DNA of 64,000 nt, from NCBI GenBank assembly GCA_964355675.1, contig CAYHEC010000017.1:4310-68309 (forward strand), written 5' to 3'. The notes beneath the pieces were generated by a model. That model saw nothing but the letters and a program-made list of their open reading frames with translations. It ran no database searches and was not told the origin of the DNA. The DNA is from an uncultured Caldithrix sp. (GTDB lineage: Bacteria > Electryoneota > AABM5-125-24 > Hatepunaeales > Hatepunaeaceae). The position numbers were made by a program, and so were the translations under genes. Of this stretch, positions 3,189 to 58,358 are shown piece after piece. The first letter of the stretch is position 1. Every line of letters begins with the position of its first letter.

Positions 3189-3228
3189 TGACTCAAGGCG
3201 CTTTAAGTCAAGGAAGTGGGAGACAGGT

Positions 3229-3621
3229 TTGAAAGGTGAAAGTTTCTACGCGACCGGACGTCGGAAGACATCTGTTGCGCGAGTCTGGCTGCGACCTGGG
3301 AGTGGTCTGATTCTTGTCAATAAAGTTGACATGACCACATATTTCCACCGCGACAGTCTGACAATGATAATCGAACAGCCGCTTGCAGTTGCAGGTGGCG
3401 CGACCGTCTTTGACGTCGAAGTTTACGTTCATGGCGGTGGGAAAGCGGCTCAGGCCGGGGCGATGCGTTTGGGAATGTCTCGAGCGCTCATCAATTTCAA
3501 TCCCGAACTGAAGTCGGTGTTAAGGCAAGGCGGGTTTTTAACCCGAGATCCTCGTGAAAAAGAACGGAAGAAGTATGGACAACCCGGCGCCCGCAAGCGT
3601 TTCCAATACTCCAAGCGATAG
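3229..3621 (+). CDS. rpsI: 30S ribosomal protein S9
   Basis: YATGRRKTSVARVWL...GARKRFQYSKR, typical S9 ends. Confidence 0.9.
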   Translation: MKGESFYATGRRKTSVARVWLRPGSGLILVNKVDMTTYFHRDSLTMIIEQPLAVAGGATVFDVEVYVHGGGKAAQAGAMRLGMSRALINFNPELKSVLRQGGFLTRDPREKERKKYGQPGARKRFQYSKR

Positions 3622-3628
3622 TCTGAGT

Positions 3629-28719: not shown

Positions 28720-30107
28720 CAGGCGCAAAAATACTCATCGTAGATGATGAAAAGCTGATACGTTGGGCTTTGGAAAAAGGCCTGAAACAGATCGGTTTTC
28801 AAGTTGAAACTGCCGCAACCGGTGAGGAGGGACTTCAAAAATATGAGTCCTTCCTGCCCGACGCAGTTATTCTCGACAATAAGCTTCCCGGCATACAGGG
28901 TTTGGAGATTCTCAACGAGTTGAAGAGTCGTGACGCCCGGCTGATTATACTCTTTATGACCGCCTTCGGTACTATCGAAACTGCCGTCGAAGCAATGAAG
29001 CGCGGAGCTTATGATTATATCAATAAACCGTTTGTCTTCGAAGAAATTAGGCAACTGCTTGAAAAAGCCCTCTATGTTCAGCGATTGGATACTGAGGTCC
29101 AGACACTCAAGGCAGTGGTTCAGAAGCAGTTCGACACTGAGAATGTTATCTCACTTTCGCCAGCAATGCGCAATATACTGCAAATGGTGGATAAAATCGC
29201 GCGAAGTGAGGCTCCTACAGTATTGCTGACCGGCGAATCGGGAACAGGCAAGGACTTAATGGCGAGAGTCATCCATGAACGAGGTCCCCGCCGTCAACGT
29301 CCATTCGTTACTATCAATTGTTCAGCGCTTCCCGAGTCTCTTCTTGAAAGTGAATTGTTTGGCTACGAGAAAGGCGCCTTTACCGACGCAAAGCAGATGA
29401 AACGCGGTCAATTCGAACTCGCGTCTGGCGGGACGATCTACCTCGACGAAATTGGGGAAATCGCACTCGGACTTCAGGTCAAGCTCCTGCAGGTAATAGA
29501 AAACCGCATGTTCCGCCGGGTCGGAGGCGTTAAGGACATCCTTGTCGATTCTCTGATCATTGCCGCGACCAATATCAATCTGGCAAGCGCTGTCGAAGCC
29601 GGGATGTTCCGCCGCGATCTGTACTATAGACTTAACTTGATTCCAATTGAATTGCCGCCGTTAAAGTCGCGGCGGGAAGACATTGTTCCCATCGCTCTCT
29701 ATTTTGTGCGGAAATTCAACGATGAGTTTCATCGACATTTCAAGGGTATTACTGATGAAGTGAAGAAGATTCTCACCGAATATGATTGGCCTGGAAACAT
29801 TCGTGAATTACGCAACGTGGTCGAGCGAATTGTGATTCTCGAGAATGACGAAATGATCGAAGCCAACCATCTGCCCATCGAGTTGCGCCAATATGCGGAG
29901 GTTTCCTTGGATCAATCCCATTTCCTTTCAACCCAAGAATTGGGCATTGAAATTCCAGTAGAAGGACTCTCAATGGAAGCTGTCGAAAGGGAATTAGTAG
30001 TGAAAGCGCTGAACAAAACTGCCCAAAATCAAACCAAGGCAGCCAAGATGCTCGACATCACGCGAGACTCGCTTCGCTATAAGATGAAAAAGTTCGGGTT
30101 GCTGTAG
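28716..30107 (+). CDS. Sigma-54-dependent response regulator (NtrC family)
   Basis: REC (ILIVDDEK), AAA+ GESGTGKDL, ESELFGYEKGAFTDA, C-terminal Fis-type HTH. Confidence 0.85.
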   Translation: MTGAKILIVDDEKLIRWALEKGLKQIGFQVETAATGEEGLQKYESFLPDAVILDNKLPGIQGLEILNELKSRDARLIILFMTAFGTIETAVEAMKRGAYDYINKPFVFEEIRQLLEKALYVQRLDTEVQTLKAVVQKQFDTENVISLSPAMRNILQMVDKIARSEAPTVLLTGESGTGKDLMARVIHERGPRRQRPFVTINCSALPESLLESELFGYEKGAFTDAKQMKRGQFELASGGTIYLDEIGEIALGLQVKLLQVIENRMFRRVGGVKDILVDSLIIAATNINLASAVEAGMFRRDLYYRLNLIPIELPPLKSRREDIVPIALYFVRKFNDEFHRHFKGITDEVKKILTEYDWPGNIRELRNVVERIVILENDEMIEANHLPIELRQYAEVSLDQSHFLSTQELGIEIPVEGLSMEAVERELVVKALNKTAQNQTKAAKMLDITRDSLRYKMKKFGLL

Positions 30108-35152: not shown

Positions 35153-37252
35153 GTGAAGGAAGCACACCCCGAAAATATCCGCAATATTGCCTTGATTTCG
35201 CATCAAGGAGCCGGAAAAACAACTCTGACCGAGACCATGCTTCATCGCATGGGCGTCATCACACGTATGGGTTCTATCGAAGAAGGAAACACCCAGAGTG
35301 ACTATCATCATGACGAAATTACTCGAAAAATCTCGATTACTACGACTCTACTCGTCGGATACCATAACGGTATTAAATTGAATATACTTGACACGCCGGG
35401 ATTTACAGACTTTCAAGGTGACGTCATCAGTGCGGTTCGCGCCGCTGATTGTGCCTGTCTGCTGATAAATGCCACGTCAGGTATCGAGGTTGGGACCGAG
35501 TTGGTTTGGGGGATTGCTTCTGAAGTAAAATTACCGAAATTTTTCTTCGTAAATCATCTCGACAAAGAGCATGTCAATTTCGAGAAAATCTTCAATGAGT
35601 TGATCGAAGAATTTAGTGGCGCTGTACTTACTCAATTCCCAGTCAATCCGGGATCAGACGCCTTCAACCAGATCGTCGATTTGATCTCAATGAAGCTGAT
35701 CACTTATAATCCCGACGGGACAGAAAAATCACGCACCGATATTCCAGCGGAACTAAAGTCAAAAGCTGACGAATTACATCTTAAGCTGATTGAGCGATCC
35801 GCCGAAGCTGACGACGCGTTAATGGAGAAGTTCTTCGAGGAAGATACCCTTTCCCACGAGGACATGCTCGCCGGTTTAAGAAAAGGTCTTCGGGAAGGGA
35901 CATTGAATCCGGTTCTCTGCGGATCTGCCAAGAAACAGGTTGGTACCTCACTTCTTCTTGAATTCGTAAATTCTGCGGTCCCTTCACCGGCAGATATACC
36001 GTCATTCAAAGCGACTTTAGAAGGAAGCGAAAAGACGGTTATGCTGTCTTGTAACCCCACCGGCCTGCTGGCGGCATTGGTATTTAAGACTATCTCGGAA
36101 CAGCATGTTGGTGATCTTTCATTTTTTCGGGTTTTTTCCGGCACGATTGCCGCCGCATCGGAAGCCAGGAATTCGAAAAGAGCGTCATCCGAAAAAATCG
36201 GGCAAATTTTTACCGTCTCCTCGAAGACACGCAAATCAGCCGACGAAGTATCGGCCGGAGACATTGGCGCACTGGTAAAACTCCATAATACCCACTCTGG
36301 CGATACATTAACAGCAACCAAAGATGGAGTCATTCTTCCGACCATTCATTATCCTGATCCGGTCACTCGTACAGCGATGGTTCCGCGCCATCGAGGCGAG
36401 GAAGAGAAAATTTCGAACGGGTTGCACATACTCACCGAAGAAGATCCGACGATCAAATTCCATTATGACTCGGAGCTTGCACAACTAATCGTGGAAGCCC
36501 AGGGCGAACTCCATCTGAATAGCATGATCGACAAACTTAAAGACCGATTTGGAGTAGATGTAGATCAAGTTGAACCCCATATACCTTATCGCGAAGCTAT
36601 ACGCGGTCATGCCGAAGGTCAAGGAAAGTACAAAAAACAGTCTGGAGGCCGCGGACAGTTCGGTGACTGCTGGTTAAAGCTTGAGTCCATTCCCCGCGAT
36701 CACGAATTTGAATTCGTTGACGCCATCGTCGGCGGAGTCATTCCGGGCAAGTTTATCCCGGCTATCGAAAAAGGCGTAAAATCCGCGATGGTTGACGGCG
36801 TGATCGCTGGATTTACGGTTGTAGGTGTACGTTGCACGGTTTACGATGGGTCTTACCATACTGTTGACTCCTCAGAAAACTCCTTCAAAATTGCCGCCTC
36901 TATGGGATTTAAGAAAATATTCAAAGAGGCCAAACCGGTTGTTCTGGAACCAATCTACAACCTTGAATTGCGAGTCCCCGAGGAGTTCATGGGTGACGTC
37001 ATGGGGGACATATCTTCAAAACGAGGCAAGATCAGCGGAATGGATCGAGAGGGCAGATTCCAATTGATCAAAGCAAAAATTCCACTGGCCGAGTTGCACA
37101 AATACTCAAGTACGTTACGTTCGCTTACCGGCGGTCGAGGTAATCATCGCCAAAGCTTCTCTCATTATGAAGAAACGCCTGGAGACATTCAACAGAAACT
37201 GATGACCGCCTATGAAGAACGTCGTGCCAAAGGCGGCGCTGAAGAGGAGTAA
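35153..37252 (+). CDS. EF-G-family translational GTPase paralog with degenerate G motifs
   Basis: G1 SHQGAGKTT (canonical AHIDAGKTT), switch II DTPGFTDF (canonical DTPGHVDF), EF-G domains II-V present; 699 aa. Confidence 0.75.
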   Translation: MKEAHPENIRNIALISHQGAGKTTLTETMLHRMGVITRMGSIEEGNTQSDYHHDEITRKISITTTLLVGYHNGIKLNILDTPGFTDFQGDVISAVRAADCACLLINATSGIEVGTELVWGIASEVKLPKFFFVNHLDKEHVNFEKIFNELIEEFSGAVLTQFPVNPGSDAFNQIVDLISMKLITYNPDGTEKSRTDIPAELKSKADELHLKLIERSAEADDALMEKFFEEDTLSHEDMLAGLRKGLREGTLNPVLCGSAKKQVGTSLLLEFVNSAVPSPADIPSFKATLEGSEKTVMLSCNPTGLLAALVFKTISEQHVGDLSFFRVFSGTIAAASEARNSKRASSEKIGQIFTVSSKTRKSADEVSAGDIGALVKLHNTHSGDTLTATKDGVILPTIHYPDPVTRTAMVPRHRGEEEKISNGLHILTEEDPTIKFHYDSELAQLIVEAQGELHLNSMIDKLKDRFGVDVDQVEPHIPYREAIRGHAEGQGKYKKQSGGRGQFGDCWLKLESIPRDHEFEFVDAIVGGVIPGKFIPAIEKGVKSAMVDGVIAGFTVVGVRCTVYDGSYHTVDSSENSFKIAASMGFKKIFKEAKPVVLEPIYNLELRVPEEFMGDVMGDISSKRGKISGMDREGRFQLIKAKIPLAELHKYSSTLRSLTGGRGNHRQSFSHYEETPGDIQQKLMTAYEERRAKGGAEEE

Positions 37253-37253
37253 T

Positions 37254-37760
37254 TTGGAACGAATTTGGGCGCCTTGGAGACTTAAATACATCGAATCGAC
37301 ACTGATACCATCATCTGACTGCTTTCTCTGTGACGCTTCGCTTCAAGAAGTATGCTATGAGACGCTGACAGTCTGGCAAGACGAGACCACGCTCGTTATT
37401 ATGAACAGGTTCCCCTATAATAACGGGCACTTACTCATCGCTCCCAGGAAGCATGTCGGCGACATCTCAGATCTTACCATCTTAGAAGGCTCGGCATTGT
37501 TTGCATCATTGCAACGGGCAACCGGTTGGTTAACCGCGGTATATTCGCCGCATGGTTTCAATATCGGGATGAACCTTGGACGCGTTGCCGGAGCCGGCCT
37601 GCCGGGACATCTCCATATCCATCTCGTGCCAAGGTGGAGCGGAGATGTCAACTTTATGACAGTTGTTGGCGAAGTAAAGGTGATTTCGGAAAGTCTTGAG
37701 GTCGGGTGGGAGCGTATCCGGGCGGTGGTAGTGAAAAATAATGATCCGGTCGGTTCATAA
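37254..37760 (+). CDS. HIT-family nucleotide hydrolase/transferase
   Basis: Histidine triad GHLHIHLVPR; probable TTG start right after the EF-G stop. Confidence 0.65.
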   Translation: MERIWAPWRLKYIESTLIPSSDCFLCDASLQEVCYETLTVWQDETTLVIMNRFPYNNGHLLIAPRKHVGDISDLTILEGSALFASLQRATGWLTAVYSPHGFNIGMNLGRVAGAGLPGHLHIHLVPRWSGDVNFMTVVGEVKVISESLEVGWERIRAVVVKNNDPVGS

Positions 37761-37767
37761 TGTTCTT

Positions 37768-37860
37768 GGAGGGCGGACTTTCAGTCCGCTCTCGTCCGGG
37801 CAGGACAGGTTTCCAAACCTGTCAGAGCGGACTAAAAGTCCGCCCTCCAAGTATCAATTG
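37768..37860. repeat. Composite nested-palindrome element (family A ends, ~93 bp)
   Basis: cttggagggcggact...gacaggtttccaaacctgtc...agagcggactaaaagtccgccctccaag. Confidence 0.75.
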
Positions 37861-37934
37861 TTTCTACAAAATAATACTCTTATCATTACAACTTATCTCC
37901 ACAAAATATCAATATCATTCAAACCGAGATCGAA

Positions 37935-38498
37935 ATGCGGAACGAAACTATTGAAATCAAGTTACCTATCACAGATGATACAGCGCGAGCCCTCGTAGCT
38001 GGAGATGCAGTCAGCCTAAGTGGCGTTATGTTCTCAGCGCGTGACGCCGCTCATAAAAAGCTGGTCGATCTGCTCGACGCCGGAGAGCCTTTGCCAATCG
38101 AGATTGCCGGGCAGACTATCTATTATATGGGGCCTTCACCCGCCAAACCGGGATCCGTTATTGGATCAGCCGGCCCAACTACCAGTTACCGGATGGACGC
38201 TTATGCTCCGACTTTGATCGCTATCGGATTGAGGGGGATGGTCGGCAAAGGTGAGCGAGGTTCCAATGTTGTTGAGGCTATGAAACAACATGGTGCAGTT
38301 TACTTCGCCGCAACTGGTGGAGCCGCGGCTCTGATCTCTCAGTCCATTATCGAAGCCGAGGTCGTAGCTTTTCCAGAGCTTGGGCCGGAAGCGGTACGTA
38401 GGCTCGTCGTTAAAGGCTTTCAAGTCATTGTCGCACAAGATTCGCACGGCGGGAATCTCTATAAGGACGGGGTGGAACGATATCGTGATGCATCGTGA
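37935..38498 (+). CDS. Fe-S hydro-lyase beta subunit (class I fumarate hydratase / tartrate dehydratase C-terminal domain)
   Basis: GQTIYYMGPSPAKPG...GLRGMVGKGERG...VYFAATGGAAAL; 187 aa; no alpha subunit adjacent. Confidence 0.7.
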   Translation: MRNETIEIKLPITDDTARALVAGDAVSLSGVMFSARDAAHKKLVDLLDAGEPLPIEIAGQTIYYMGPSPAKPGSVIGSAGPTTSYRMDAYAPTLIAIGLRGMVGKGERGSNVVEAMKQHGAVYFAATGGAAALISQSIIEAEVVAFPELGPEAVRRLVVKGFQVIVAQDSHGGNLYKDGVERYRDAS

Positions 38499-41472: not shown

Positions 41473-41564
41473 TTCCAAGTCTCCGAATACCCGCTACCGC
41501 CCCGCCATAGTCGGCAGAGAAAAAAGCCCACTGCCGACCCGCCGTGGTCGGCAGGAAGCTTAAG

Positions 41565-41660
41565 AGAGCCGCTGTCACACGTCCCGGGTTAATAAAGTGC
41601 TGCTGTCACACGTCCCGGGTTAATAAAGTGTTGCTGTCACACGTCCCGTGTGACAGCCCT
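41565..41660. repeat. Tandem ~31-bp direct repeats (2.6 copies) ending in a palindrome
   Basis: (c)tgctgtcacacgtcccgggttaataaagtg x2, then gctgtcacacgtcccgtgtgacagc. Confidence 0.8.
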
Positions 41661-41700: not shown

Positions 41701-42282
41701 TTGCAAAAGTTATTATTACATATCTGCTGCGCGCCAGATGCGTCGGTTGCCGTCGAAAGACTGCGCGACCGCTATGATCTGACCGGTTATTTCTATAATC
41801 CCAATATAGAGCCACTTACCGAATATGCTCTTCGGGAAGCAGAGGCTCGACTGCTCTCAGCAGTACTCCATTTCAAGTACCTTGAGACTCAACCACTTCG
41901 TGACGAGTGGTTTGAACTCTGCTCTCCCTTTTCCTCCGAACCCGAACGAGGTGAGCGTTGCCGCGTTTGCATTTCTCACCGTCTTAAAACAACAGCCCAA
42001 TGCGCTGTTGTTCATGGAATTACCCATTTCACAACAACTCTTACTACTTCTCCACATAAAGACGTTGACTTCATCCACGAAACTGGCGAAATTTTGGCAA
42101 ATGAATTCGGACTGATCTATCTTCCCGAGACATTTCGCGCGCGCGATGGATTTCGGCGCAGTCTCGAGCTTTGTCGGGAATACAATTTATACCGCCAGAA
42201 CTACTGCGGATGTCGCTGGAGTCAGAGAAATGGCGAACGTGTACTGCCCAAAGAGTCTGATATCATCGTTCGCAGATCATGA
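41701..42282 (+). CDS. queH: Epoxyqueuosine reductase QueH-like (DUF208)
   Basis: LLLHICCAP...YFYNPNIEP...QNYCGC; TTG start. Confidence 0.65.
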   Translation: MQKLLLHICCAPDASVAVERLRDRYDLTGYFYNPNIEPLTEYALREAEARLLSAVLHFKYLETQPLRDEWFELCSPFSSEPERGERCRVCISHRLKTTAQCAVVHGITHFTTTLTTSPHKDVDFIHETGEILANEFGLIYLPETFRARDGFRRSLELCREYNLYRQNYCGCRWSQRNGERVLPKESDIIVRRS

Positions 42283-43508
42283 ATTCGCTTCCGATCATCC
42301 TCGACGGCAGACCGGAGACATACTCCGATCTAGTTAACAAGGCCATCGCGGGGGCAATGGAAATCACTCGCGCCTGGCGTGAGGGCCGGGGGGATGAGGA
42401 AGCGGTCAACCAGATTGAGTCCGACGCTCGCCAAGCTGTCCGTCGAGCGTTCGATCTGCCGAATGATTGCCGGATTATATTCACTTCTTCAATTGAGGAA
42501 GCTCGGAATAGTGCCATCAAGGGGCTTGCATGGGGAGCCGGAACCAGCAGGAACGGGATAATTACCGTCGAAGGCGATCCAGCGGGGTTTGAGGAGTCGG
42601 CGATCTGGCTGGAGCGGTTTGGCTTCCGTTCGATACGGCTTCCAGTCGGAAAAGCCGGAGGGATACCTTTTCCATTGCTTGACAAGTCGGTCGATGACCG
42701 GACGGCTGTGGTGGCGTTACTCTCCACGACTCCCGAAATGTACCGCTGGCGGATACCTGAGATTCGCAAGCTGATAGCCTCGTGCGAAAGGCATGGGGCT
42801 GAATTAGTTATCGACGTTTCGGTTGAAGTGCAAGTGAAACGAATGGAATACGACTCCTCAAAAATGACACTGCTTTGCGATGGAGTTACTCTTGGCGCGC
42901 CGATTGGCGTGGCGTTTGTGGCGCTGAGACCCGGAGCCCGTTTCGGCCCATTGGTCAGCGGAGGCCTTGAGCAGGACGGTTTGCGAGCTGGAAGACTTAA
43001 CCCAGCGCTGGTTGCGGGACTTGCCGCCGCGGTGATGGAGAACGTTTCTTCTGCCGACCCCCTGCGGTCGGCAGCCAGTGGCGTTTCTTCTGCCACCCCC
43101 CCGTGGGTGGCAGCGAGTGGCGGTTCTTCTGCCACCCCCCCGTGGGTGGCAGCACTTTCCACCCTCCGCCAAACCGCCCTTCGTGAGCTTCGCCGCCGTA
43201 TTCCCTCCGCGAGGCTTGTCCATGGCGAAGCCCCCCTGCCGGTCGGGATCACCTTCGTCGTCCCCGGCGTCGAAGGCGAGGCGGTAGTGATGCTCTGCGC
43301 ACAAGAGAACGTCTTCGTCTCGACGGGATCGACCTGTTCGAAGAAGGCGGGCAAACCCTCGCCGGTACTCCTCGCCGCAGGTTTCACGACCGAGGAGGCT
43401 TCCGGGGCGATAGGGTTGACATTCCGCGCCGGGCAGACGGTTGAAGATGTGAAAATGGCGATGGAAGTTATTGGGAAGGCGGTATTAAAACTGATGGAAA
43501 TAGGATGA
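42279..43508 (+). CDS. Cysteine desulfurase-like (class V aminotransferase fold) paralog lacking the PLP lysine, with in-frame hairpin-repeat insertion
   Basis: C-terminal VSTGSTCS active-Cys loop present, but the SxHK PLP motif is replaced by LLCDGV; two 39-bp tandem palindromic units encode SGVSSATPPWVAA x2. Confidence 0.6.
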   Translation: MNSLPIILDGRPETYSDLVNKAIAGAMEITRAWREGRGDEEAVNQIESDARQAVRRAFDLPNDCRIIFTSSIEEARNSAIKGLAWGAGTSRNGIITVEGDPAGFEESAIWLERFGFRSIRLPVGKAGGIPFPLLDKSVDDRTAVVALLSTTPEMYRWRIPEIRKLIASCERHGAELVIDVSVEVQVKRMEYDSSKMTLLCDGVTLGAPIGVAFVALRPGARFGPLVSGGLEQDGLRAGRLNPALVAGLAAAVMENVSSADPLRSAASGVSSATPPWVAASGGSSATPPWVAALSTLRQTALRELRRRIPSARLVHGEAPLPVGITFVVPGVEGEAVVMLCAQENVFVSTGSTCSKKAGKPSPVLLAAGFTTEEASGAIGLTFRAGQTVEDVKMAMEVIGKAVLKLMEIG

Positions 43509-45096: not shown

Positions 45097-47067
45097 ATGA
45101 ATTTTTACTGGAGTTCTCGGTTCCATTTTGCAGTACTGATCGTGTCGTCGAATCTCGGCGCCGCTCTACTGCAGGATGGCCATGCAACAATCCCTGCCAA
45201 TCTTCCGGAACACCCCTTTATTAGAGAGCTCAGACCGGTCAATTGCCAAGGATCGAGCCTTCCTTCCCAGAGCCTGATCCGGACTAACCCTGCCCGTCTT
45301 CCTGCCAGAGATGATTCCGATGAAGATATTTCCTACTGCAACGAAGAGGATATCGAATATCTATGGACTCTTCCCGATGCATTTGGCGACCATAGTTATT
45401 TCGAACGATTCACGCCAGCGGAAGCTCCTTTTCGCCTCATCGGCTTAAGAATCGTCCTGCATAATTTATTCGGTAATGCGGGGCATCCTGACATGCGCGT
45501 TTCTATTGCTACCAGTGACCGCAATCTGCCTGATGATGAGATCGAATCATTTGTAGTGCCAACCGAGGACCTCGTCTTAAGTCCGAATGGAGATTGGTTT
45601 TGGAATGAATATCTTTTCGACGAATATGGTGTCGGTGCGATAAGGTTTGAGGAAGCGGTGGATTTCCATCTGATTATCAACATTGCACCTAATAATGACG
45701 AAGACACTCTCGCTCTCGTCACCGATGATGGTCGCCGTCGTATCGACAGGAGCGGCCTTTTCGATGGGATGGACTCAACGTATGTGCTATTCAGAAATCT
45801 TCAGGGCGTTCGTATTTCGGTGAATTTTGCGCTGGTCGCCATCGTAGAGTACGGAGACGCTCCGGTAAGACAGGTGATTTCACTCCGGGAAGGCTGGAAC
45901 ACAATCTCGCTCAATGTTTCTCCTACTGCCATCGACTGGATAGAAGATTTAGGTCCCGACCCAAGAGGTATGATACAGCAATTCCGTATCGATGATGAAC
46001 ACCACCATGTGATTATGTTGAAGGACAGATTCGGGCAATTTTGCTCTCCTCAAGACGATGTGTGGGACATTCCGTATTGGAATTTATCAGACGGTTACCA
46101 GATCAAGGTCGATGAACCCCTCCGGGGTTCGTGGACTGGAACAGCCATAGATCCACAAAGTCCGCTTCCGCTTGCCCCGGGATGGAACATGGTTCCTTAT
46201 TACCCTGAATACGAGCTATCCGCGGCTTCGCCGGAATTTGAGGTTGTGAGTTCTATTCTCGACCAACTAATCGTTGTTAAAGACGATGCTGGAAACTTCA
46301 TGCTCCCTTCGCTGAACTTTTCTAACATGGCTGATTGGCAGCCGGGGAAGGGCTACCAGATCAAAGTTGACGCCGATTGCGATCTTACCTATCCAGGCGA
46401 CGAGGGCCGGACAAATTCCCCAAGATCTGCTGACGCCCCCAAGCCAATTCATTGGTCATTAGAAGCCCCGAGTTCTGACAATATGTTGCTTTTGATAAAC
46501 TCATTCGGGGAGTCACTATTCGTGGACGGTGATGAGATTGGCGCATTTGACTCACAGGGGAGTCTCGTTGGATCTGGCGTTATTGTTGAGGGGAGGTGCG
46601 GGCTTGCTTTATGGGGCGAAGATCCATCAGGAACCGTTAAGGATGGACTTACAGTAGGCGAAGAGCCATCATTCAGGCTTTGGCGCTCAGAGAGGTCGGA
46701 AGAATCTTCACTGCTGATAAAAGATTCGCAACATGGTAAGCCTATCCGGTATGCTCGCAATGATGTTGTTGTTGGTAGCGCTGTCATCGTCGAAGCACTT
46801 CCTGAGAGGTCATCGCTTACTTCTGTTCATCCAAATCCGTTCAACAGTTTTACCCTTATTGAATATTTACTTGCCGAGTCTGGCATTGTTACTATTGTTC
46901 TCTGCGATACGCAAGGGAGAATTGTCGCCCAAATATTCGAGGGGAACAGAGAAGCTGGCAGATACATGGAAAGAGTCGATGGCGGTGAGCTTGCGGCAGG
47001 TCTCTATTTCCTTAGGATGAATGCGGGAAAATATTTAAGTATGACGAGGATTGTATTGTTGAAATGA
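45097..47067 (+). CDS. Large secreted hypothetical protein with T9SS C-terminal sorting domain
   Basis: C-terminus VHPNPFNSFTLIEYLL...GLYFLRMNAGKYLSMTRIVLLK; 656 aa. Confidence 0.65.
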   Translation: MNFYWSSRFHFAVLIVSSNLGAALLQDGHATIPANLPEHPFIRELRPVNCQGSSLPSQSLIRTNPARLPARDDSDEDISYCNEEDIEYLWTLPDAFGDHSYFERFTPAEAPFRLIGLRIVLHNLFGNAGHPDMRVSIATSDRNLPDDEIESFVVPTEDLVLSPNGDWFWNEYLFDEYGVGAIRFEEAVDFHLIINIAPNNDEDTLALVTDDGRRRIDRSGLFDGMDSTYVLFRNLQGVRISVNFALVAIVEYGDAPVRQVISLREGWNTISLNVSPTAIDWIEDLGPDPRGMIQQFRIDDEHHHVIMLKDRFGQFCSPQDDVWDIPYWNLSDGYQIKVDEPLRGSWTGTAIDPQSPLPLAPGWNMVPYYPEYELSAASPEFEVVSSILDQLIVVKDDAGNFMLPSLNFSNMADWQPGKGYQIKVDADCDLTYPGDEGRTNSPRSADAPKPIHWSLEAPSSDNMLLLINSFGESLFVDGDEIGAFDSQGSLVGSGVIVEGRCGLALWGEDPSGTVKDGLTVGEEPSFRLWRSERSEESSLLIKDSQHGKPIRYARNDVVVGSAVIVEALPERSSLTSVHPNPFNSFTLIEYLLAESGIVTIVLCDTQGRIVAQIFEGNREAGRYMERVDGGELAAGLYFLRMNAGKYLSMTRIVLLK

Positions 47068-47293: not shown

Positions 47294-47308
47294 TGGCACG
47301 CCGATTGC
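47294..47308 (+). promoter_or_regulatory. Candidate sigma-54 (-24/-12) promoter TGGCAC-N5-TTGC
   Basis: Exact match tggcacgccgattgc about 300 bp upstream of the multiheme cytochrome operon, oriented toward it. Confidence 0.5.
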
Positions 47309-47615
47309 GAAAGGTTTCAAGAGAAATTGTTTCAAATATGAAATCTATTTCAATATAGACCGCACTGCTTCCTTTAAAATATTCCTTCACTTTCGTCTAT
47401 TATACTGAAATTTGTCCCTTATAAGACAAATCACATCTTCGAACAAATTACAGTGAAATCCTCCCAATAGTTGGAGTCACATTATTTTGTGCCATGTTCG
47501 TAAGGCATTTCTCAGCTGGTTTCCTGCCCAATTCTGCCAGCTAATCTTACTGTCAGACAAGGGAGCCCGGTTGGCGGGTATTATTTGCTCTTCTCAGTCA
47601 ATAGAATGAAAGCAT

Positions 47616-48350
47616 ATGCCAGATCAAATTAAACGTCTGTTGGTAGTAATCGCGATCATAGCGGTTTGCTTCCTGGTTGTTCGAACCTTCTTCATTCCGG
47701 ATAGTTTTGGTAAGTTCGGTCATTACCGTGCCGTGTCGCTTGATTCGGTTGCGGCTCTCCCGACCAGCTATGCCGGTCACAATGCCTGTCTCGAATGTCA
47801 CGATGATATCGATCAGATCAAGAAAGCGTCTTATCATCGTACTGTAAGCTGTGAAGCATGTCATGGACCGGGTCGCGGGCATATAGAAAGTATGGGAGAC
47901 AGCGTACTGGCGGCTCCTCGCGACCGTGATTACTGCGTTTTATGTCATGGTTACAGCTCCGCCAAACCGACCGGTTTCCCACAGATAGATCCGATAGTTC
48001 ACAATCCAGTGAAACCTTGCATCACGTGTCACAATCCGCACGCCCCGGATCCACCAAGAATTCCGGGTGATTGCAGTGCCTGTCACGCCGTTATTGCACG
48101 AACCAAGGCGGTATCTCCTCACGCCCTGCTTGAATGCACTCAATGCCACATGACGCCGGAAGAACATAAGGTAAATCCCCGCATGGTCAAACCCGGGAAG
48201 CCTATCGTGCGAGCCGACTGCGGGACATGCCATGCAAAAGAGGCCGCGAGTGACAAATCGATTCCGAGGATCGATATCGAACGCCATGGTGACGGCTTCC
48301 TATGTTGGAATTGCCACTACCCCCATAATCCGGAGTCAAATAAGAAATGA
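47616..48350 (+). CDS. Membrane-anchored octaheme c-type cytochrome (NrfB/DsrJ-position electron carrier)
   Basis: N-terminal TM helix; eight CxxCH motifs in 244 aa. Confidence 0.8.
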   Translation: MPDQIKRLLVVIAIIAVCFLVVRTFFIPDSFGKFGHYRAVSLDSVAALPTSYAGHNACLECHDDIDQIKKASYHRTVSCEACHGPGRGHIESMGDSVLAAPRDRDYCVLCHGYSSAKPTGFPQIDPIVHNPVKPCITCHNPHAPDPPRIPGDCSACHAVIARTKAVSPHALLECTQCHMTPEEHKVNPRMVKPGKPIVRADCGTCHAKEAASDKSIPRIDIERHGDGFLCWNCHYPHNPESNKK

Positions 48351-49117
48351 TTGAAAATATAGATGAACGAAGGAAATTCGTAAAGACGCTTGTCGGGCTT
48401 GTCGCGACGGCAGGAGCCATCCCTTTACTTTCGACCTTCGATAAAATATATGCCAACGCCAACGATACTGAGAATGAGTTGATCGGTGGAAAAAAGTATG
48501 GTATGGGCATTAATATCAAGTCGTGTATCGGTTGCGGTAGGTGCGTCGAAGCCTGCAAGAACGAAAATCAAGTCCCCAAGGATCCCTATCACTTCCGAAC
48601 GTGGGTCGAGCGGTATGCGATTTTAATGACTGGCGAGACCAAGGTCGATAGTCCCAATGGCGGAATGGAAGGATTTCCGGTCGATGCAAGCGAAGGCGAA
48701 ATCTTGCGTAGTTTTTTTGCTCCAAAGCTCTGCAACCATTGCAGTAATGCGCCTTGCGTTCAGGTCTGCCCAGTCGGCGCTACCTACACCACTCCTGATG
48801 GTGTTGTATTAGTCGATAAAGACTACTGCATAGGCTGTCGATATTGCATTCAGGCATGTCCTTACGGTGCGAGGTTTTTCGATCCTGCCACCAGAGTTGC
48901 GTCCAAATGCACGTTCTGTTATCATCGGTTAGCCAAGGGTCTGTTGCCAGCTTGTGTCGAAGTTTGCCCAACTCAGGCGAGAATATTTGGCGATACGCTT
49001 GCACGAGCCAGCCAATTGACGCGATTCTTCCGTTTCAATGAAATACAGGTTCTAAAACCGGACCTAAATACCAGACCACAAGTCTTCTATGCCGGTCTTG
49101 ATGGGGTGGTTCGATAA
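48347..49117 (+). CDS. Tat-exported 4x[4Fe-4S] ferredoxin-type subunit (NrfC/DsrO/PsrB-like)
   Basis: RRKFVK Tat-like N-terminus; four Cys clusters CIGCGRCVEAC, CNHCSNAPCVQVCP, CIGCRYCIQACP, CTFC...CVEVCP. Confidence 0.8.
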   Translation: MIENIDERRKFVKTLVGLVATAGAIPLLSTFDKIYANANDTENELIGGKKYGMGINIKSCIGCGRCVEACKNENQVPKDPYHFRTWVERYAILMTGETKVDSPNGGMEGFPVDASEGEILRSFFAPKLCNHCSNAPCVQVCPVGATYTTPDGVVLVDKDYCIGCRYCIQACPYGARFFDPATRVASKCTFCYHRLAKGLLPACVEVCPTQARIFGDTLARASQLTRFFRFNEIQVLKPDLNTRPQVFYAGLDGVVR

Positions 49118-50325
49118 TGGATAGACTAACCGAACAATTAGCACATGCCCTTAAAAGCATCACTGGATATATCTATCCCAACGAGATTGAACTGCATTGG
49201 GGTATTCTGATCGTTATTTACCCCTACCTCACCGGACTCGTTGCGGGAGCGTTTATCCTTGCGTCTCTGGTTAAGGTATTCAAAGTCAAAGCCCTCGAAC
49301 CGACATACAGACTGTCATTACTGACAGCTCTCTCCTTTCTTATCATTGCCCCTGTACCGCTTCTTTCGCACTTGGGTCACCCGGAACGATTTTACGAAAT
49401 ATTGTTCACGCCTAATTCCAAGTCAGCGATGGCAATGTTCGGATTTGTGTACGCTTGGTATTTGATGATGGTGTTACTACTCGAAATCTGGTTTGATTAC
49501 CGTGCGGAGTTTGTAAGATGGGCTTCGGAATCCACTGGGATTAAAAAACTTGCCTACCGAGCGTTTGCGTTGTGGTCATCAGATATCTCAGAAAAAGCAA
49601 TAGCTTTCGATAAACGGGCTGTCCGATATATCACACTTATCGGTATCCCTTCAGCATTTCTACTGCATGGGTATGTCGGCTTTATCTTCGGTTCGATCAA
49701 AGCCAATCCTTGGTGGAGCAGTGTGCTGATCCCCGTAGTGTTTCTGTTTTCTGCTATCGTTTCCGGAATTGCACTGATGTTGGTCATCTACCTTGTGACG
49801 ACACTGTGGCGTGGGAAAAAACTTGATATGCCGTGTCTTGACAAAATGTCAGAGTTTCTTCTATACGCGTTGATTATCGATTTCTCGCTTGAGCTTCTCG
49901 ATTTTGTCCATCGACTGTACCAGTCAGAGGAGTCGATAGAGATTCTTGGGAATATGATTTCAAGCCGACTTTTCATAAGCTTGATCATCGTGCAGATGTT
50001 GATGGGGACGATACTTCCGTTAATCGCACTGGGAATTACAAGAGTGCGTCGTCGAGTTTTGCCTGAGGAACTCAGAAGAATGATCTACCTGCTCGCGGCG
50101 ATCTTAATTCAGGCGGGAATCTTCAGCACTCGTTGGAATGTCGTGATTGGTGGGCAGTTATTTTCGAAGAGCCTTCGTGGGCTGACCATTTACAAAATGG
50201 AAGTTCTCGGGATTGAGGGCTTGCTGGTATCAATCGTGTTGCTGGTTCTGCCATTCATAGTACTGGGTATTATCGTGAAAATTCTACCGCCGTGGGAAGA
50301 AGAAGTTCACACTCCAGCCGCTTGA
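49117..50325 (+). CDS. NrfD/PsrC-family integral membrane quinol-interacting subunit
   Basis: About 10 TM helices; 402 aa; operon position after the NrfC-like gene. Confidence 0.7.
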   Translation: MDRLTEQLAHALKSITGYIYPNEIELHWGILIVIYPYLTGLVAGAFILASLVKVFKVKALEPTYRLSLLTALSFLIIAPVPLLSHLGHPERFYEILFTPNSKSAMAMFGFVYAWYLMMVLLLEIWFDYRAEFVRWASESTGIKKLAYRAFALWSSDISEKAIAFDKRAVRYITLIGIPSAFLLHGYVGFIFGSIKANPWWSSVLIPVVFLFSAIVSGIALMLVIYLVTTLWRGKKLDMPCLDKMSEFLLYALIIDFSLELLDFVHRLYQSEESIEILGNMISSRLFISLIIVQMLMGTILPLIALGITRVRRRVLPEELRRMIYLLAAILIQAGIFSTRWNVVIGGQLFSKSLRGLTIYKMEVLGIEGLLVSIVLLVLPFIVLGIIVKILPPWEEEVHTPAA

Positions 50326-50450
50326 TCGGAAAGGGTGGGGATAGTTCCGTTTAACTGCGTATTCTAATTTGTGTTCGAGTAGTCACTTAGGTGGCGAAAG
50401 ACTTATATCTGTCGCAACTAACAACACTTCGAGGTTATTAGAGGAATAAA

Positions 50451-50708
50451 ATGACGGAAAACAGTGAACAAAGGTCAAATTGGCAGGCTCATCTGACTGG
50501 GATACTCGCTTGGCTAATTCTGGTAGGAGGAATTCTCTACGGAGTAATCGAGATGATATTTGTTGGATTTTGGTCTGGATTTCTGCTTGCGGCGGGAGTA
50601 TCTACGGTCTGCGTTTTATTTGCGGTTGGTTTGCTGACTTTAAGCCATGTTTTATTTAGAATTGGCGCGGTCGAAGATGAACTTAACAAATTGCAGAAGA
50701 AGGAATGA
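50451..50708 (+). CDS. Small 2-TM membrane protein
   Basis: Good RBS (gaggaataaaATG); two hydrophobic helices. Confidence 0.45.
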   Translation: MTENSEQRSNWQAHLTGILAWLILVGGILYGVIEMIFVGFWSGFLLAAGVSTVCVLFAVGLLTLSHVLFRIGAVEDELNKLQKKE

Positions 50709-50752
50709 CGGGAAGAATCAAACTGTCAACCACCTGATGCAAAAGATATTGA

Positions 50753-50800
50753 AACAGAAAGAAGTCAGCCATCACGGCTGACTTCTTTCTGTTTTGAATT
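50753..50800. terminator. Bidirectional terminator between convergent genes
   Basis: cagaaagaagtcagccatcacggctgacttctttctg followed by ttttg. Confidence 0.75.
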
Positions 50801-50830
50801 AAACTATCTGATTGAGCTTAGGCGCCCGGA

Positions 50831-52228
50831 CTAATGCGCATACCGTTTCTTAAATTCTTCAGTAGCTTTTGCGCGCTTAACCTTTTCGTCATCCGGCATT
50901 TTGCCGATAAACCAGCGGTGATCTGGAGAGGAGAGAATTTCATCGATCTTCTTGTTGACTTTCTCTGCCGAGTTCTTGTTGCCTGCCAGGTCTGCCTTAT
51001 GCGCCAGCTCTTTTGCCTGCGGGATCAACTCGGTGTAAAAGCGATGGCTGACTTCGAAGAATCCGTGCCATTGTGTATAGTCGGGTGCAAACATAGCGGC
51101 TCCCATACGGGCACGACGACCTTCGTGATGCCAGAGGAAGTACCATGTCCACTCGATCTCATCGTCGAATTGAATATCGGTTGTGATTAACTTCTCGTTA
51201 GTTAAGACACCCATCAACTCACGACCAGGGATGGCGAATTTGGTGTTGTACAATTCAACAACGTTATCGAACTGGTGGTAAAAGGATTGAACATAGTCCG
51301 GCGTGTGACAGACTCCACAGACCTGTTTCATATCGTTCCGGCGAGCCTCCCAAGATTTCACCTGCTTTCCCGCCTTCTTTGCCGATTCATCCACTTTTTC
51401 CGATACTGCGGGTCGTAACGTCCAACTGATTCGCGCTCCGACGTCATGCGTCAGCGGGAGCGCGGGCGTGGCGGACATGTGGCATGTCGCGCATGTCGGA
51501 GCGGCGCTATAGTCTTCTCCCAATACCCATTTGGAGGAGTTGAGATTCATCTTGTCTTTATTGCCGTAATAGGCGATTCCGTGCTTTGACTCCTCGTAAA
51601 TTTCCTTCTGAGGATGGTCGGGGCCAAGATGGCAGCGTCCGCAGTTCTCCGGCTGACGTGCCTGCGCAACCGAAAAGCTATGTCGGGTGTGGCACGCTGA
51701 ACAAGACCCTGTCGATCCGTCCGGATTAATACGTCCCATACCGGTATTGGGCCAGGTGTCAGGATCAAGCTTTCCCGGACCGGTCACCTTTACTTCAGAT
51801 CCGTGGCATTGGCGACAACCAGAGACGGCGGCGGCGGGACCTTCGACAATTTCGCCAAGAATATTGTCAAGTGAGCCGAGTATTTGTGCCGCTCGTGAAT
51901 GATGGCTATTAAGGAATTCAGTAGTTTCTTCCTTATGGCATTTTGCGCAATCGAGCGGCGAGACGATAATGCTGATTGTGTAGCCGTTGTGGTCGAAAGC
52001 GTCGGGATCGCCCTTGGTTGCCTGGTGGCATTCGTAACAGCCGACGTTGGCGCCATAATGCTTTGAACTGCCCCACTGATCGTAAATGCCGGGATTATCG
52101 ACTCTATGGCATTCGATACAGGCTTGGGTTTCGTCTGATAGTTTGGTGATGTACGTTTGATTTTGAATTGCTTGCGGTGGTGACGCTGAAATCAGACAGG
52201 CGGTAATAACGGCAAGGACATCTGTCAT
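50831..52228 (-). CDS. Periplasmic octaheme c-type cytochrome, HAO/ONR-like
   Basis: Signal peptide; eight CxxCH motifs in 465 aa, consistent in size and heme count with the hydroxylamine-oxidoreductase/octaheme reductase family. Confidence 0.65.
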   Translation of the reverse strand: MTDVLAVITACLISASPPQAIQNQTYITKLSDETQACIECHRVDNPGIYDQWGSSKHYGANVGCYECHQATKGDPDAFDHNGYTISIIVSPLDCAKCHKEETTEFLNSHHSRAAQILGSLDNILGEIVEGPAAAVSGCRQCHGSEVKVTGPGKLDPDTWPNTGMGRINPDGSTGSCSACHTRHSFSVAQARQPENCGRCHLGPDHPQKEIYEESKHGIAYYGNKDKMNLNSSKWVLGEDYSAAPTCATCHMSATPALPLTHDVGARISWTLRPAVSEKVDESAKKAGKQVKSWEARRNDMKQVCGVCHTPDYVQSFYHQFDNVVELYNTKFAIPGRELMGVLTNEKLITTDIQFDDEIEWTWYFLWHHEGRRARMGAAMFAPDYTQWHGFFEVSHRFYTELIPQAKELAHKADLAGNKNSAEKVNKKIDEILSSPDHRWFIGKMPDDEKVKRAKATEEFKKRYAH

Positions 52229-56289: not shown

Positions 56290-56406
56290 TTCAGCAGGGT
56301 GAGGACACCCTGCCGCATCACGAAAGACAACCTGTTGCAGGGTGTCTTCACCATGCAAAAATTCCAATCAATCGACTGGTTGCAGGGTGTCTTCACCCTG
56401 CAACAG
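56290..56406. repeat. Array of three related palindromes (GCAGGGTG-N-CACCCTGC)
   Basis: cagggtgaggacaccctg; ttgcagggtgtcttcaccatgcaa; ttgcagggtgtcttcaccctgcaa. Confidence 0.75.
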
Positions 56407-56420
56407 TTGCAATTCTAATT

Positions 56421-58249: not shown

Positions 58250-58316
58250 GCCAAGCGGACGCCCTCGTCCGCTCTTTCACTGTGCTTGATATAACGGCGG
58301 ACGAGGGCGTCCGCCT
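58250..58316. repeat. Double-hairpin element family B
   Basis: agcggacgccctcgtccgct ... ggcggacgagggcgtccgcc. Confidence 0.75.
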
Positions 58317-58358
58317 GGACATTTTCGCATATTATTTGACTTTTTCAACAGACTCAAT

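Follow-up and report, generated by a model that had tools for sequence, protein, structure and literature searches.

Organization of the locus

The 64-kb stretch of DNA analyzed here (the window) carries only two open reading frames (ORFs) with more than one CxxCH motif, one encoding a membrane-anchored octaheme cytochrome (c8) and the other an HAO-family octaheme cytochrome. Because these are the sole multi-CxxCH ORFs of the window, their presence is not attributable to chance. The c8 gene is followed by genes for an NrfC-like protein and an NrfD-like subunit, and the HAO-family gene is convergent with them (Table 1). An initial annotation of this DNA had named all of these genes, including an eight-heme transmembrane cytochrome, a Tat-type four-cluster protein, and an NrfD-family subunit, and each was confirmed at the stated coordinates; the list had omitted an 85-aa ORF and a 20-bp hairpin.

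Table 1. Features of the locus, with positions in the window
Feature	Position	Strand	Basis
Sigma-54 type -24/-12 promoter element, TGGCACGCCGATTGC	47294..47308	+	TGGCAC-N5-TTGC exact match
c8, membrane-anchored octaheme c-type cytochrome	47616..48350	+	ORF, 244 aa, eight CxxCH
NrfC/PsrB/CbcT-like protein, Tat-exported, four [4Fe-4S]	48347..49117	+	ORF, 256 aa, Pfam Fer4_11
NrfD-family integral membrane subunit	49117..50325	+	ORF, 402 aa, Pfam PF03916
85-aa ORF, two transmembrane helices	50451..50708	+	ORF and predicted hydrophobic helices
Hairpin, perfect 20-bp stem	50752..50794	none	Terminator scan and sequence inspection
HAO-family octaheme cytochrome	50831..52228	-	ORF, 465 aa, eight CxxCH, Pfam PF13447

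The stop codon of c8 overlaps the start of the NrfC-like gene by 4 nt (ATGA), and the stop of the latter overlaps the start of the NrfD-like gene by 1 nt. These three genes (hereafter, the trio) form one operon behind the sigma-54 element, to which the 85-aa ORF perhaps also belongs. Across the 64 kb of the window, TGGCAC-N5-TTGC is matched exactly only once, against 0.08 matches expected by chance, and the element also lies 5' of the orthologous cytochrome gene at three other loci (87 nt in L005 and L006; 145 nt in L007). Between the trio and the octaheme gene, it occurs on the trio side only. The hairpin, situated between the 85-aa ORF on the NrfD-like side and the convergent octaheme gene, is likely to be a bidirectional terminator of two convergent units; a shorter form has been kept at the equivalent site of L005, a locus lacking the HAO gene.

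Subunits of the trio and their known counterparts

The c8 protein has one N-terminal hydrophobic (transmembrane) helix at residues 9 to 27. Because all of its CxxCH motifs, together with another eight His residues, are invariant among 26 homologs, c8 is predicted to be a carrier rather than an enzyme, this pattern fitting eight bis-His hemes without an open catalytic site. The two halves of the protein can be aligned to each other gap-free over 88 residues, with 31% identity (E = 2e-13). In a profile comparison (hhalign), c8 matched a CbcS-like tetraheme family with a probability of 99.9% (E = 7e-33), its N-terminal half covering the whole tetraheme protein, including anchor and linker. We therefore infer that c8 arose when a tetraheme module of the CbcS-like kind, presumably that of CbcS itself, was duplicated in tandem; the CbcS-like clade is tied to true CbcS (GSU0068) by two short peptides read from primer sequences in the literature and not by the full sequence. 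The initial annotation was right in counting eight CxxCH motifs in 244 aa, but its description of this heme density as unusually high does not hold: c8 has approximately one heme per 24 to 30 residues, which is the normal density of c3/c7-type multiheme carriers.

In the NrfC-like protein, a Tat-type motif (RRKF) is accompanied by 16 Cys residues in four ferredoxin-type motifs (Fer4_11; 3e-28). Among solved structures, Thermus PsrB (2vpw_B; 4e-46) is closest to this protein, which did not reach the curated cut-offs of TtrB, DsrO, and NrfC. The NrfD-like subunit (PF03916; 6e-40), presumed to hold the quinol/quinone site, is the most conserved member of the trio across loci (61 to 91% identity). 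Its NCBIfam scores were 54 bits for NrfD (cut-off, 348) and 44 bits for DsrP (cut-off, 350), and a phmmer search against solved structures returned no match. None of the three trio subunits reached the curated cut-offs of NrfC, NrfD, DsrO, or DsrP. The 85-aa ORF, a possible lineage-specific accessory subunit, had no match among family models; outside the window, only L005, L006, and L007 have it behind the NrfD-like gene.

Judged by domains and by the CbcS-like homology, the trio has the architecture of a quinol dehydrogenase of the NrfBCD, Cbc4, or NetBCD kind, as had been proposed in general terms. Like Cbc4 of Geobacter sulfurreducens (CbcS, GSU0068; CbcT, GSU0069; CbcU, GSU0070), it is a three-part system comprising a bis-His cytochrome c with N-terminal anchor and linker, a periplasmic four-[4Fe-4S] protein, and a heme-free membrane subunit; in Cbc4, the anchored cytochrome is a tetraheme with four bis-His hemes (bioRxiv 10.1101/2025.04.14.648717). 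With the CbcS-like family as a stand-in for Cbc4 sequences, the N-terminal half of c8 is homologous to the tetraheme protein along its full length; identity to the CbcS-like clade is only about 30%. The trio differs from Cbc4 in the two tetraheme modules and eight hemes of c8, where CbcS has one module, and in its lineage-specific 85-aa ORF and sigma-54 promoter. Purified CbcS reduces PpcA (bioRxiv 10.1101/2025.04.14.648717); deletion of cbcS in Geobacter gave no phenotype, and the physiological role of Cbc4 is unknown.

NetBCD (Aeromonas/Vibrio) and NrfBCD (Escherichia coli) likewise combine a cytochrome c with NrfC-type and NrfD-type subunits and are quinol dehydrogenases for periplasmic acceptors: NetBCD, cited as a functionally characterized inner-membrane quinol dehydrogenase, feeds MtrCAB (PMC8805035), and NrfBCD feeds NrfA (PMC12285233). 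However, NrfB is a soluble pentaheme protein, whereas c8 is a membrane-anchored octaheme without an NrfB-like Pfam match, and, in contrast to the E. coli Nrf system, the NrfC/NrfD equivalog scores are far under the cut-offs and NrfA is not present. Among the cytochrome:quinone complexes of sulfate reducers, Nhc (NhcABCD) joins a multiheme cytochrome c and a four-[4Fe-4S] protein to an NrfD-like subunit and one small membrane protein, a composition reminiscent of the trio together with the 85-aa ORF, but NhcA is a nine-heme cytochrome, unlike c8, and Nhc is a TpIc3:quinone oxidoreductase (PMC8076601). For complexes of the HmcABC type, the scores against the curated HmcA and HmcB models were far under the cut-offs. 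Ohc was rejected as a counterpart, its OhcC subunit being of the heme b kind and not of the NrfD type (PMC4641369).

The HAO-family octaheme cytochrome

The 465-aa protein matches the HAO family (PF13447; 1e-27), and, among solved structures, the octaheme of Ignicoccus hospitalis (4qo5) is closest to it (1.5e-48 alone; 2e-64 with a profile). In three MAFFT modes, an invariant Trp387 stands opposite the cross-linking Tyr467 of Nitrosomonas HAO, a column in which the Tyr-less Ignicoccus enzyme has Phe, and the stretch with invariant Asp204-His205 is conserved. Because Trp occupies the cross-link site, the Asp-His pair is kept, and no CxxCK motif was found in the protein, it is a predicted reductase of the epsilon-Hao/IhOCC type, which most likely converts nitrite and/or hydroxylamine to ammonium. 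The HAO-like octaheme of the initial annotation can thus be placed in a catalytic-type, Tyr-less reductive class.

Epsilon-Hao proteins (Campylobacterota; Caldithrix abyssi Cabys_2556) and IhOCC (4qo5) share with this protein eight CxxCH motifs, the HAO fold family, a similar size, the Asp-His stretch, and the absence of Tyr at the cross-link position, the assignment being one by conserved residues and the nearest solved structure. The epsilon-Hao of C. abyssi has been proposed as a nitrite reductase (PMC5317091). A further likeness is found in Gynuella, a gammaproteobacterial relative that carries a NapC/NirT tetraheme gene directly behind its HAO ortholog. In contrast to epsilon-Hao, neither a nap cluster nor a NapC/NrfH-type gene was found near the octaheme gene in the window.

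Distribution and relationship of the two units

The trio occurs in the same gene order at 39 other loci, all from metagenome assemblies and belonging to many, mostly uncultured phyla; the c8 clade was found in FCB-group, Acidobacteriota, Gemmatimonadota, and other metagenome-assembled genomes, not in Geobacter. The trio therefore appears to be a common module of membrane electron transfer that has received little study. As in the NetBCD system, an MtrB/PioB porin gene (PF11854; about 1e-74) adjoins it at four loci (L018, L020, L029, and L055, the last with a tetraheme variant of the trio). A further ORF with at least five hemes lies nearby at 16 of the 31 other octaheme loci; since approximately half of the loci adjoin some multiheme cytochrome, the arrangement of a trio with a neighboring multiheme client is recurrent. 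Eight such neighboring cytochromes were scanned, and these were c3/c7/MtrA-like, none belonging to the HAO family. Such porins, and large cytochromes of the electron-carrier type, are frequent neighbors of the trio.

No HAO homolog was found in the trio flanks at any of the 39 other loci (18 with full 10-kb flanks), nor was the trio found at the six informative loci of HAO relatives (60 to 82% identity). Co-localization in relatives, which had been named beforehand as decisive for an Nrf system whose NrfA is replaced by an octaheme, is thus lacking, and such a dedicated system is not supported. In the nearest syntenic relative, the trio, the 85-aa ORF, and lpxC-fabZ are kept and the HAO gene is cleanly absent; L005 and L006 retain the whole neighborhood without it. 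Conversely, relatives of 75 to 82% identity place the HAO gene in at least four other contexts. These comparisons indicate two separate transcription units, probably adjacent in this genome only among the loci compared. The genome itself probably belongs to a Calditrichota-like member of the FCB group.

We consider it rather probable that unit 1 is a quinol:cytochrome c oxidoreductase and unit 2 an independent epsilon-Hao-type reductase, neighbors only here. Unit 1 would be a sigma-54-dependent operon for a periplasm-facing complex of the Cbc4 (CbcSTU), NetBCD, or NrfBCD kind, in which the heme-free NrfD-type subunit would oxidize menaquinol, the Tat-exported subunit would relay the electrons through its four [4Fe-4S] clusters, and the eight bis-His hemes of membrane-anchored c8 would receive them. 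From there, c8 might serve as a general outlet to any periplasmic multiheme acceptors of the cell. Unit 2 would be a monocistronic octaheme that forms ammonium from nitrite and/or hydroxylamine. The trio may opportunistically supply this octaheme with electrons, and the adjacency could still matter functionally because no NapC/NrfH-type gene lies near the octaheme gene and the window covers only 64 kb of the genome.

That the trio instead serves the octaheme as its dedicated quinol dehydrogenase, replacing HaoC/NrfH or NrfBCD in an Nrf-like nitrite/hydroxylamine respiration, appears unlikely. The adjacency of the units without a NapC/NrfH-type gene would suit this arrangement, as would the membrane quinol dehydrogenase encoded alongside the Gynuella relative, the frequency of multiheme cytochromes as trio neighbors, the existence of NrfH and NrfBCD as alternative NrfA donors (PMC12285233), and the unresolved donor of Caldithrix epsilon-Hao (PMC5317091). 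However, the lack of linkage at 39 trio and 6 HAO loci, the intact L005/L006 neighborhoods, the varied contexts of the HAO gene, and the convergent orientation with an intervening hairpin and a sigma-54 element at the trio only all argue against it.

We also doubt that the trio runs in reverse, carrying electrons from periplasmic or extracellular donors to the quinone pool as a Qrc/Nhc-like cytochrome c:quinone oxidoreductase or as the inner-membrane end of PioAB/MtoAB-type uptake. NrfD-based complexes do run both ways, Qrc and Nhc being cytochrome:quinone oxidoreductases (PMC8076601); porins of the MtrB/PioB family take part in Fe(II) oxidation as well as in metal reduction (PMC8805035); and the midpoint of CbcS, about -139 mV, permits either direction with menaquinone. 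Against this, Cbc4 and NetBCD, the most similar systems described, are regarded as quinol oxidases, no periplasmic donor (hydrogenase or formate dehydrogenase) was found in the window, and none of the features tested discriminates direction.

An oxidative P460-type hydroxylamine/hydrazine dehydrogenase feeding the quinone pool via the trio, as a counterpart of nitrifier HAO-c554-cM552, is highly improbable: although the octaheme has an invariant Tyr384 three residues before the Tyr467-aligned position (PDYTQW, resembling GGWTYTEGW) and keeps the Asp-His stretch, no amo, hzs, or haoB-like genes were found in the window, all three alignment modes set Trp387 and not Tyr384 opposite Tyr467, with the Ignicoccus Phe in the same column, the nearest solved relative is the Ignicoccus octaheme rather than a nitrifier or anammox HAO, Caldithrix epsilon-Hao is reported without the Tyr (PMC5317091), and HAOs lacking it act as reductases (PMC8042395).

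Gene content and transcription units of the interval

The interval 47616-52228 comprises five ORFs (listed in the table below), namely, a trio of genes encoding an octaheme cytochrome (c8), an NrfC-like iron-sulfur protein, and an NrfD-like membrane protein; an 85-aa ORF that was not in the initial annotation; and a convergent gene for a second octaheme protein of 465 aa. The components named in that annotation were identified correctly, as judged from ORF, Pfam, and CxxCH evidence, and because c8 and the 465-aa protein are the only ORFs with more than one CxxCH in the 64-kb window, its observation was confirmed. The trio genes overlap, at an ATGA (4 nt) between the first two and at a TAATG (1 nt) between the last two. 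A hairpin with a perfect 20-bp stem separates the 85-aa ORF from the stop codon of the opposing octaheme gene and is likely a bidirectional terminator; an Rfam scan of the region returned this hairpin alone, under every family threshold. The octaheme gene is thus monocistronic and set apart from the trio operon.

The sigma-54 consensus TGGCAC-N5-TTGC is matched exactly just once in the window (0.08 matches expected by chance), upstream of the c8 gene, and the same element precedes the c8 orthologs of related contigs, by 87 nt in L005 and L006 (the nearest syntenic relatives) and by 145 nt in L007. Compared with L005 and L007, the window carries approximately 235 additional bases between this element and the c8 ribosome-binding region, for which Rfam returned no match. 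A histidine kinase and a sigma-54-dependent response regulator are recurrent neighbors of the trio in other genomes. The window also encodes such a pair, homologs of which directly adjoin the trio in four loci (L018, L019, L028, and L035), and is for that reason a candidate to regulate the 47294 sigma-54 promoter. Downstream of the trio, the 85-aa ORF is confined to the window, L005, L006, and L007, all of them Calditrichota-like loci, and by analogy its product may be a lineage-specific small subunit, loosely resembling NhcD.

Features of the window and of two comparison loci
Feature	Position	Strand	Description
Histidine kinase and sigma-54-dependent response regulator	27250-30107		CxxCH (CASCH) in periplasmic sensor part of kinase
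EF-G-like, HIT, and fumarase genes	35153-38498
REP-like arrays	41523-41657, 43043-43159, 56332-56413, 58251-58318		Tandem short GC-rich palindromic units
Predicted ORF	42279-43508		Contains one REP-like array
656-aa protein	45097-47067		T9SS-type C-terminal sorting tail
Sigma-54 element	47294-47308		Upstream of c8 gene
Additional bases	~47340-47575		Relative to L005 and L007
c8, 244 aa	47616-48350	+	Eight CxxCH; single N-terminal hydrophobic helix, residues 9-27
ATGA overlap	48347-48350
NrfC-like protein, 256 aa	48347-49117	+	RRKF Tat-type motif; 16 Cys, four ferredoxin-type motifs; Pfam Fer4_11, 3e-28
TAATG overlap	49115-49119
NrfD-family membrane protein, 402 aa	49117-50325	+	PF03916, 6e-40
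85-aa ORF	50451-50708	+	Two hydrophobic (transmembrane) helices; no family match
Hairpin	50752-50794		Likely bidirectional terminator
HAO-family protein, 465 aa	50831-52228	-	Eight CxxCH, no CxxCK; PF13447, 1e-27
LpxC-FabZ fusion protein, 466 aa	52513-53913
REP-like array in L005	~1500-1600		Upstream of trio
Tetraheme trio in L041 (Archaeoglobus sp. MAG)	1527-3917

The 465-aa octaheme and its separation from the trio

The best solved relative of the 465-aa protein is the Ignicoccus hospitalis octaheme (IhOCC; 4qo5), with E values of 1.5e-48 for the protein alone and 2e-64 with a family profile, followed by Kuenenia HAOr (6h5l; 9e-25 with the profile) and then by nitrifier and anammox HAOs. In Nitrosomonas europaea HAO, Tyr467 forms a cross-link with the catalytic heme 4 of the adjacent subunit. 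The initial annotation had proposed aligning this residue and searching for a CxxCK; in the alignments a Trp stands at the Tyr position, and CxxCK is absent. With Tyr467 placed in GGWTY467TEGW residue by residue against 4fas/1fgj, three MAFFT modes set it opposite Trp387 of the window protein and a Phe of IhOCC; a HMMER alignment to 4qo5 also pairs Trp387 with that Phe, and Trp387 is invariant across 28 family members. An invariant Tyr384 (motif APDYTQWHG) lies three residues upstream of Trp387, whose own assignment is alignment based. A by-eye alignment had suggested Tyr384 as the cross-linking residue, a placement that the three alignment modes and the IhOCC alignment argue against. CHLGPDH of the window protein aligns with CHSGVDH of Nitrosomonas HAO and contains an invariant Asp204-His205, which we take to be the counterpart of the catalytic Asp267-His268 pair.

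Eight CxxCH motifs, the PF13447 fold family, the conserved distal Asp-His pair, and the missing cross-link Tyr together point to a reductive HAO of the epsilon-Hao/IhOCC type. The oxidative alternative, a P460-type HAO/HDH, would need the cross-link Tyr, and the alignments place Trp387 at that position. Octaheme nitrite reductase (ONR), MccA, and octaheme tetrathionate reductase were rejected, as the protein has neither a family match to ONR, MccA, or OTR (TIGR04315) nor an active-site CxxCK. HAOs without the Tyr act as reductases of nitrite, NO, and hydroxylamine, and hydroxylamine oxidation is not among their activities (PMC8042395); for Caldithrix abyssi, an epsilon-Hao encoded beside the nap cluster has been proposed as the nitrite reductase (PMC5317091). 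Annotated close homologs of the window protein come from Calditrichota, Zixibacteria, and several Gammaproteobacteria, with the closest in Calditrichota. Judged by its sequence, the octaheme reductase is a typical representative of a widespread family.

The initial annotation had treated the trio and this octaheme as one Nrf-like system in which the octaheme takes the place of NrfA. Using three look-ups of close c8 homologs and a survey covering one genome per species, followed by tblastn, we identified 39 other loci that share the gene order cytochrome, NrfC-like, NrfD-like. These loci belong to Calditrichota, Zixibacteria, Marinimicrobia, and Ignavibacteria; to Gemmatimonadota, Acidobacteriota, Methylomirabilota, and Rokubacteria; and to Myxococcales, Syntrophaceae, and others. 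A tblastn search with the 465-aa protein matched none of the 39, all of which are metagenome assemblies and 18 of which have full 10-kb flanks on both sides. Conversely, the trio is absent from the six informative loci carrying relatives of the HAO gene (L001 and L090, 82% identity each; L002, 77%; L091, 75%; L092, 61%; and L093, 60%). Colocalization in related genomes, the point on which the proposed link could fail, is therefore supported by no locus, and the single-system reading was not upheld. At the Gynuella locus (L093), the HAO gene is followed by a NapC/NirT tetraheme gene. A NapC/NrfH-type tetraheme gene beside epsilon-Hao is the HaoCA arrangement, reportedly described by Haase et al. 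in 2017; no NapC/NrfH-type partner gene was found in the window, L001, L002, L090, L091, or L092.

The two nearest syntenic relatives, L005 and L006, carry the closest c8 (84% identity) together with NrfC-like (89%), NrfD-like (91%), and LpxC-FabZ (90%) homologs. Their gene order (cysteine desulfurase, c8, NrfC-like, NrfD-like, 85-aa ORF, lpxC-fabZ, surE, and guaA) is that of the window minus the HAO gene. The L005 spacer from the 85-aa ORF to lpxC-fabZ consists of the window's hairpin region fused straight to its lpxC upstream region, which marks the HAO gene as a clean indel spanning approximately 1.5 kb. In L001, the HAO ortholog adjoins EF-G-like, HIT, and fumarase genes that are found elsewhere in the window, and the location of the HAO gene differs in each related genome examined. 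The neighborhood is prone to single-gene indels. The 656-aa protein with a T9SS-type tail, whose gene separates the cysteine desulfurase gene from the cytochrome operon, is absent from the corresponding place in L005, and a methyltransferase/restriction-like gene is present between lpxC-fabZ and surE in L005 and L006 and not in the window.

The trio as a probable relative of Geobacter Cbc4

In an alignment of 26 c8 homologs (52 to 84% identity), all eight CxxCH motifs are invariant, as are eight further His residues (H74, H89, H129, H142, H169, H184, H224, and H237), a set from which we infer eight bis-His hemes and no open catalytic site. The halves of c8 align gap-free over 88 residues (31% identity; E value, 2e-13), which identifies c8 as a tandemly duplicated tetraheme module. 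Its hemes are packed at a density normal for c3/c7-type carriers. AlphaFold modeled c8 with a mean pLDDT of 80 and a low-confidence linker at approximately residues 35 to 38. Foldseek gave no significant whole-protein match in the PDB; the best local match covers approximately 55 residues of the N-terminal triheme domain of ONR (E value, ~0.1). Among 1.84 billion cluster representatives, c8 has relatives at an E value of ≤1e-10 in 473 clusters at 50% identity, most of them ~150 aa long and covering only c8 residues 1 to 145, some ~250 aa long, and a few with three or four matched stretches. The family variants would have 4 or 8 hemes and, in representatives with three or four matched stretches, perhaps 12 or more. 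In Verrucomicrobiota and Acidobacteriota, and in one MAG each of Smithella and Archaeoglobus, the gene for a tetraheme version (~150 aa) precedes the same NrfC-like and NrfD-like pair (loci L038 to L043 and L055).

The tetraheme CbcS of the Geobacter sulfurreducens Cbc4 complex (CbcSTU; GSU0068-GSU0070) has an anchor (residues 1 to 29), a linker (residues 30 to 58), and four bis-His hemes; CbcT contains four [4Fe-4S] clusters, the third subunit, CbcU, is an integral membrane protein, and purified CbcS passes electrons to PpcA (bioRxiv 10.1101/2025.04.14.648717). Like CbcS, c8 combines an N-terminal anchor and a linker with a predicted all-bis-His tetraheme module, here present twice, and both systems have a periplasmic iron-sulfur subunit with four [4Fe-4S] clusters and a cofactor-free integral membrane subunit encoded right after the other two genes. 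The c8 family matched the CbcS-like family in hhalign with a probability of 99.9% (E value, 7e-33) over c8 residues 5 to 149, spanning the anchor, the linker, and all four hemes. CbcS itself was compared via peptides deduced from published primers, which place DFGVHE at residues 30 to 35 and make residue 64 the first heme Cys. In the Smithella tetraheme (L055), the motif reads DFGIHE and spans residues 28 to 33, and the distance to the first heme Cys is again 34 residues. The motif of the L055-type clade is DFG[IV]HE. Among the best 120 homologs of the Smithella protein, 24 have the exact DFGVHE, 25 are octahemes of ~250 aa, and none is a named Geobacter protein. Scanning metagenome contigs with the 19-mer of a cbcS primer gave 31 chance matches, none with the second primer site and none with a cytochrome, NrfC, or NrfD homolog. 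These comparisons suggest that the trio family is related to Geobacter Cbc4.

Membership in the better-known systems was assessed with curated equivalog cutoffs. TtrB scored 218 bits (cutoff, 416), below its threshold. NrfABCD was ruled out, with scores of 162 bits for NrfC (TIGR03149; cutoff, 378) and 54 bits for NrfD (TIGR03148; cutoff, 348), no pentaheme CxxCK NrfA (at most 16 bits for NrfA models; cutoff, 595), and no CxxCK in any cytochrome ORF of the window; NrfB, moreover, is a soluble pentaheme, whereas c8 is an anchored octaheme without an NrfB-like Pfam match. DsrMKJOP was also ruled out, since DsrO (185 bits; cutoff, 200) and DsrP (44 bits; cutoff, 350) fell short and DsrMK-like neighbors are absent. 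Alternative complex III has an ActB that joins a molybdopterin-like domain and the iron-sulfur domain in one chain, a pair of NrfD-like subunits, and the ActA/ActE cytochromes, whereas the trio has an iron-sulfur protein of just 256 aa and a single NrfD-like gene, which excludes it; similarity to ActA was weak (8k9e_A, E value of 0.007; 6f0k_A, E value of 0.2), and the ActB alignment was restricted to the ferredoxin part. The Desulfovibrio octaheme Ohc was rejected as the nearest analog because OhcC is a heme b protein and not of the NrfD type (PMC4641369). NetBCD of Aeromonas, cited as a functionally characterized inner-membrane quinol dehydrogenase (PMC8805035), and NrfBCD of Escherichia coli (PMC12285233) are, with Cbc4, analogs of the trio. 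With the NrfD-like subunit as the query, phmmer gave no match among solved structures at an E value of ≤0.01.

Proposed role of the module and other features of the window

The best explanation of the locus is a two-unit account, in which the trio would be a sigma-54-controlled quinol:cytochrome c oxidoreductase of the Cbc4/NetBCD/NrfBCD kind with a duplicated (octaheme) CbcS-type carrier, and a gene for an epsilon-Hao-type reductase would have been placed independently beside it. The module possibly supplies electrons to the reductase in this organism, of which conserved linkage gives no sign; we infer both the substrates of the module and the direction in which electrons pass through it. The donor side of epsilon-Hao-type nitrite reduction is unsettled outside Campylobacterota, with only guesses for Caldithrix (PMC5317091). 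The locus offers one candidate epsilon-Hao donor, and the comparative evidence indicates that the pairing is not conserved. A bolder proposal, which we consider improbable, is that the octaheme CbcS-type/NrfCD complex was recruited as the epsilon-Hao quinol dehydrogenase in the Calditrichota-like lineage and that the octaheme clade is a major unrecognized quinol outlet. If true, nitrite ammonification would have a third type of donor in addition to NrfH/HaoC and NrfBCD, and the quinol-outlet role would cover Acidobacteriota, Gemmatimonadota, Zixibacteria, and relatives; as NrfD-type subunits are proposed to translocate ions, the recruited complex could also be energy conserving.

The more durable result is that the cytochrome-NrfC-NrfD module belongs to a large modular family in many uncultured phyla, annotated as hypothetical almost everywhere and often wired to porin-cytochrome conduits. 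Its best-conserved component across loci is the NrfD-like subunit (61 to 91% identity). An MtrB/PioB porin gene (PF11854, ~1e-74) lies immediately upstream of the trio in L020, L029, and L055 and downstream in L018, and 9- or 10-heme cytochrome genes accompany these porin genes. Other ORFs with at least five hemes occur near the trio in 16 of 31 other octaheme loci; the eight neighboring cytochromes scanned were all c3/c7/MtrA-like, and none belonged to the HAO family. Further recurrent neighbors are Rieske/cytochrome b genes and DUF2339 membrane proteins; several apparent families of neighboring ORFs were discarded as wrong-frame ORFs from high-GC loci. The module is a reasonable candidate for a general inner-membrane entry/exit point for periplasmic and extracellular electron transfer in soil and sediment bacteria. 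Nothing in the region is categorically new.

The LpxC-FabZ fusion and the T9SS-tail protein point to an FCB-group organism. The window also contains tandem arrays of short GC-rich palindromic units that are REP-like (e.g., CTGCCGACCCCCTGCGGTCGGCAG), one of them inside a predicted ORF, and the related contig L005 carries the same unit upstream of its trio.
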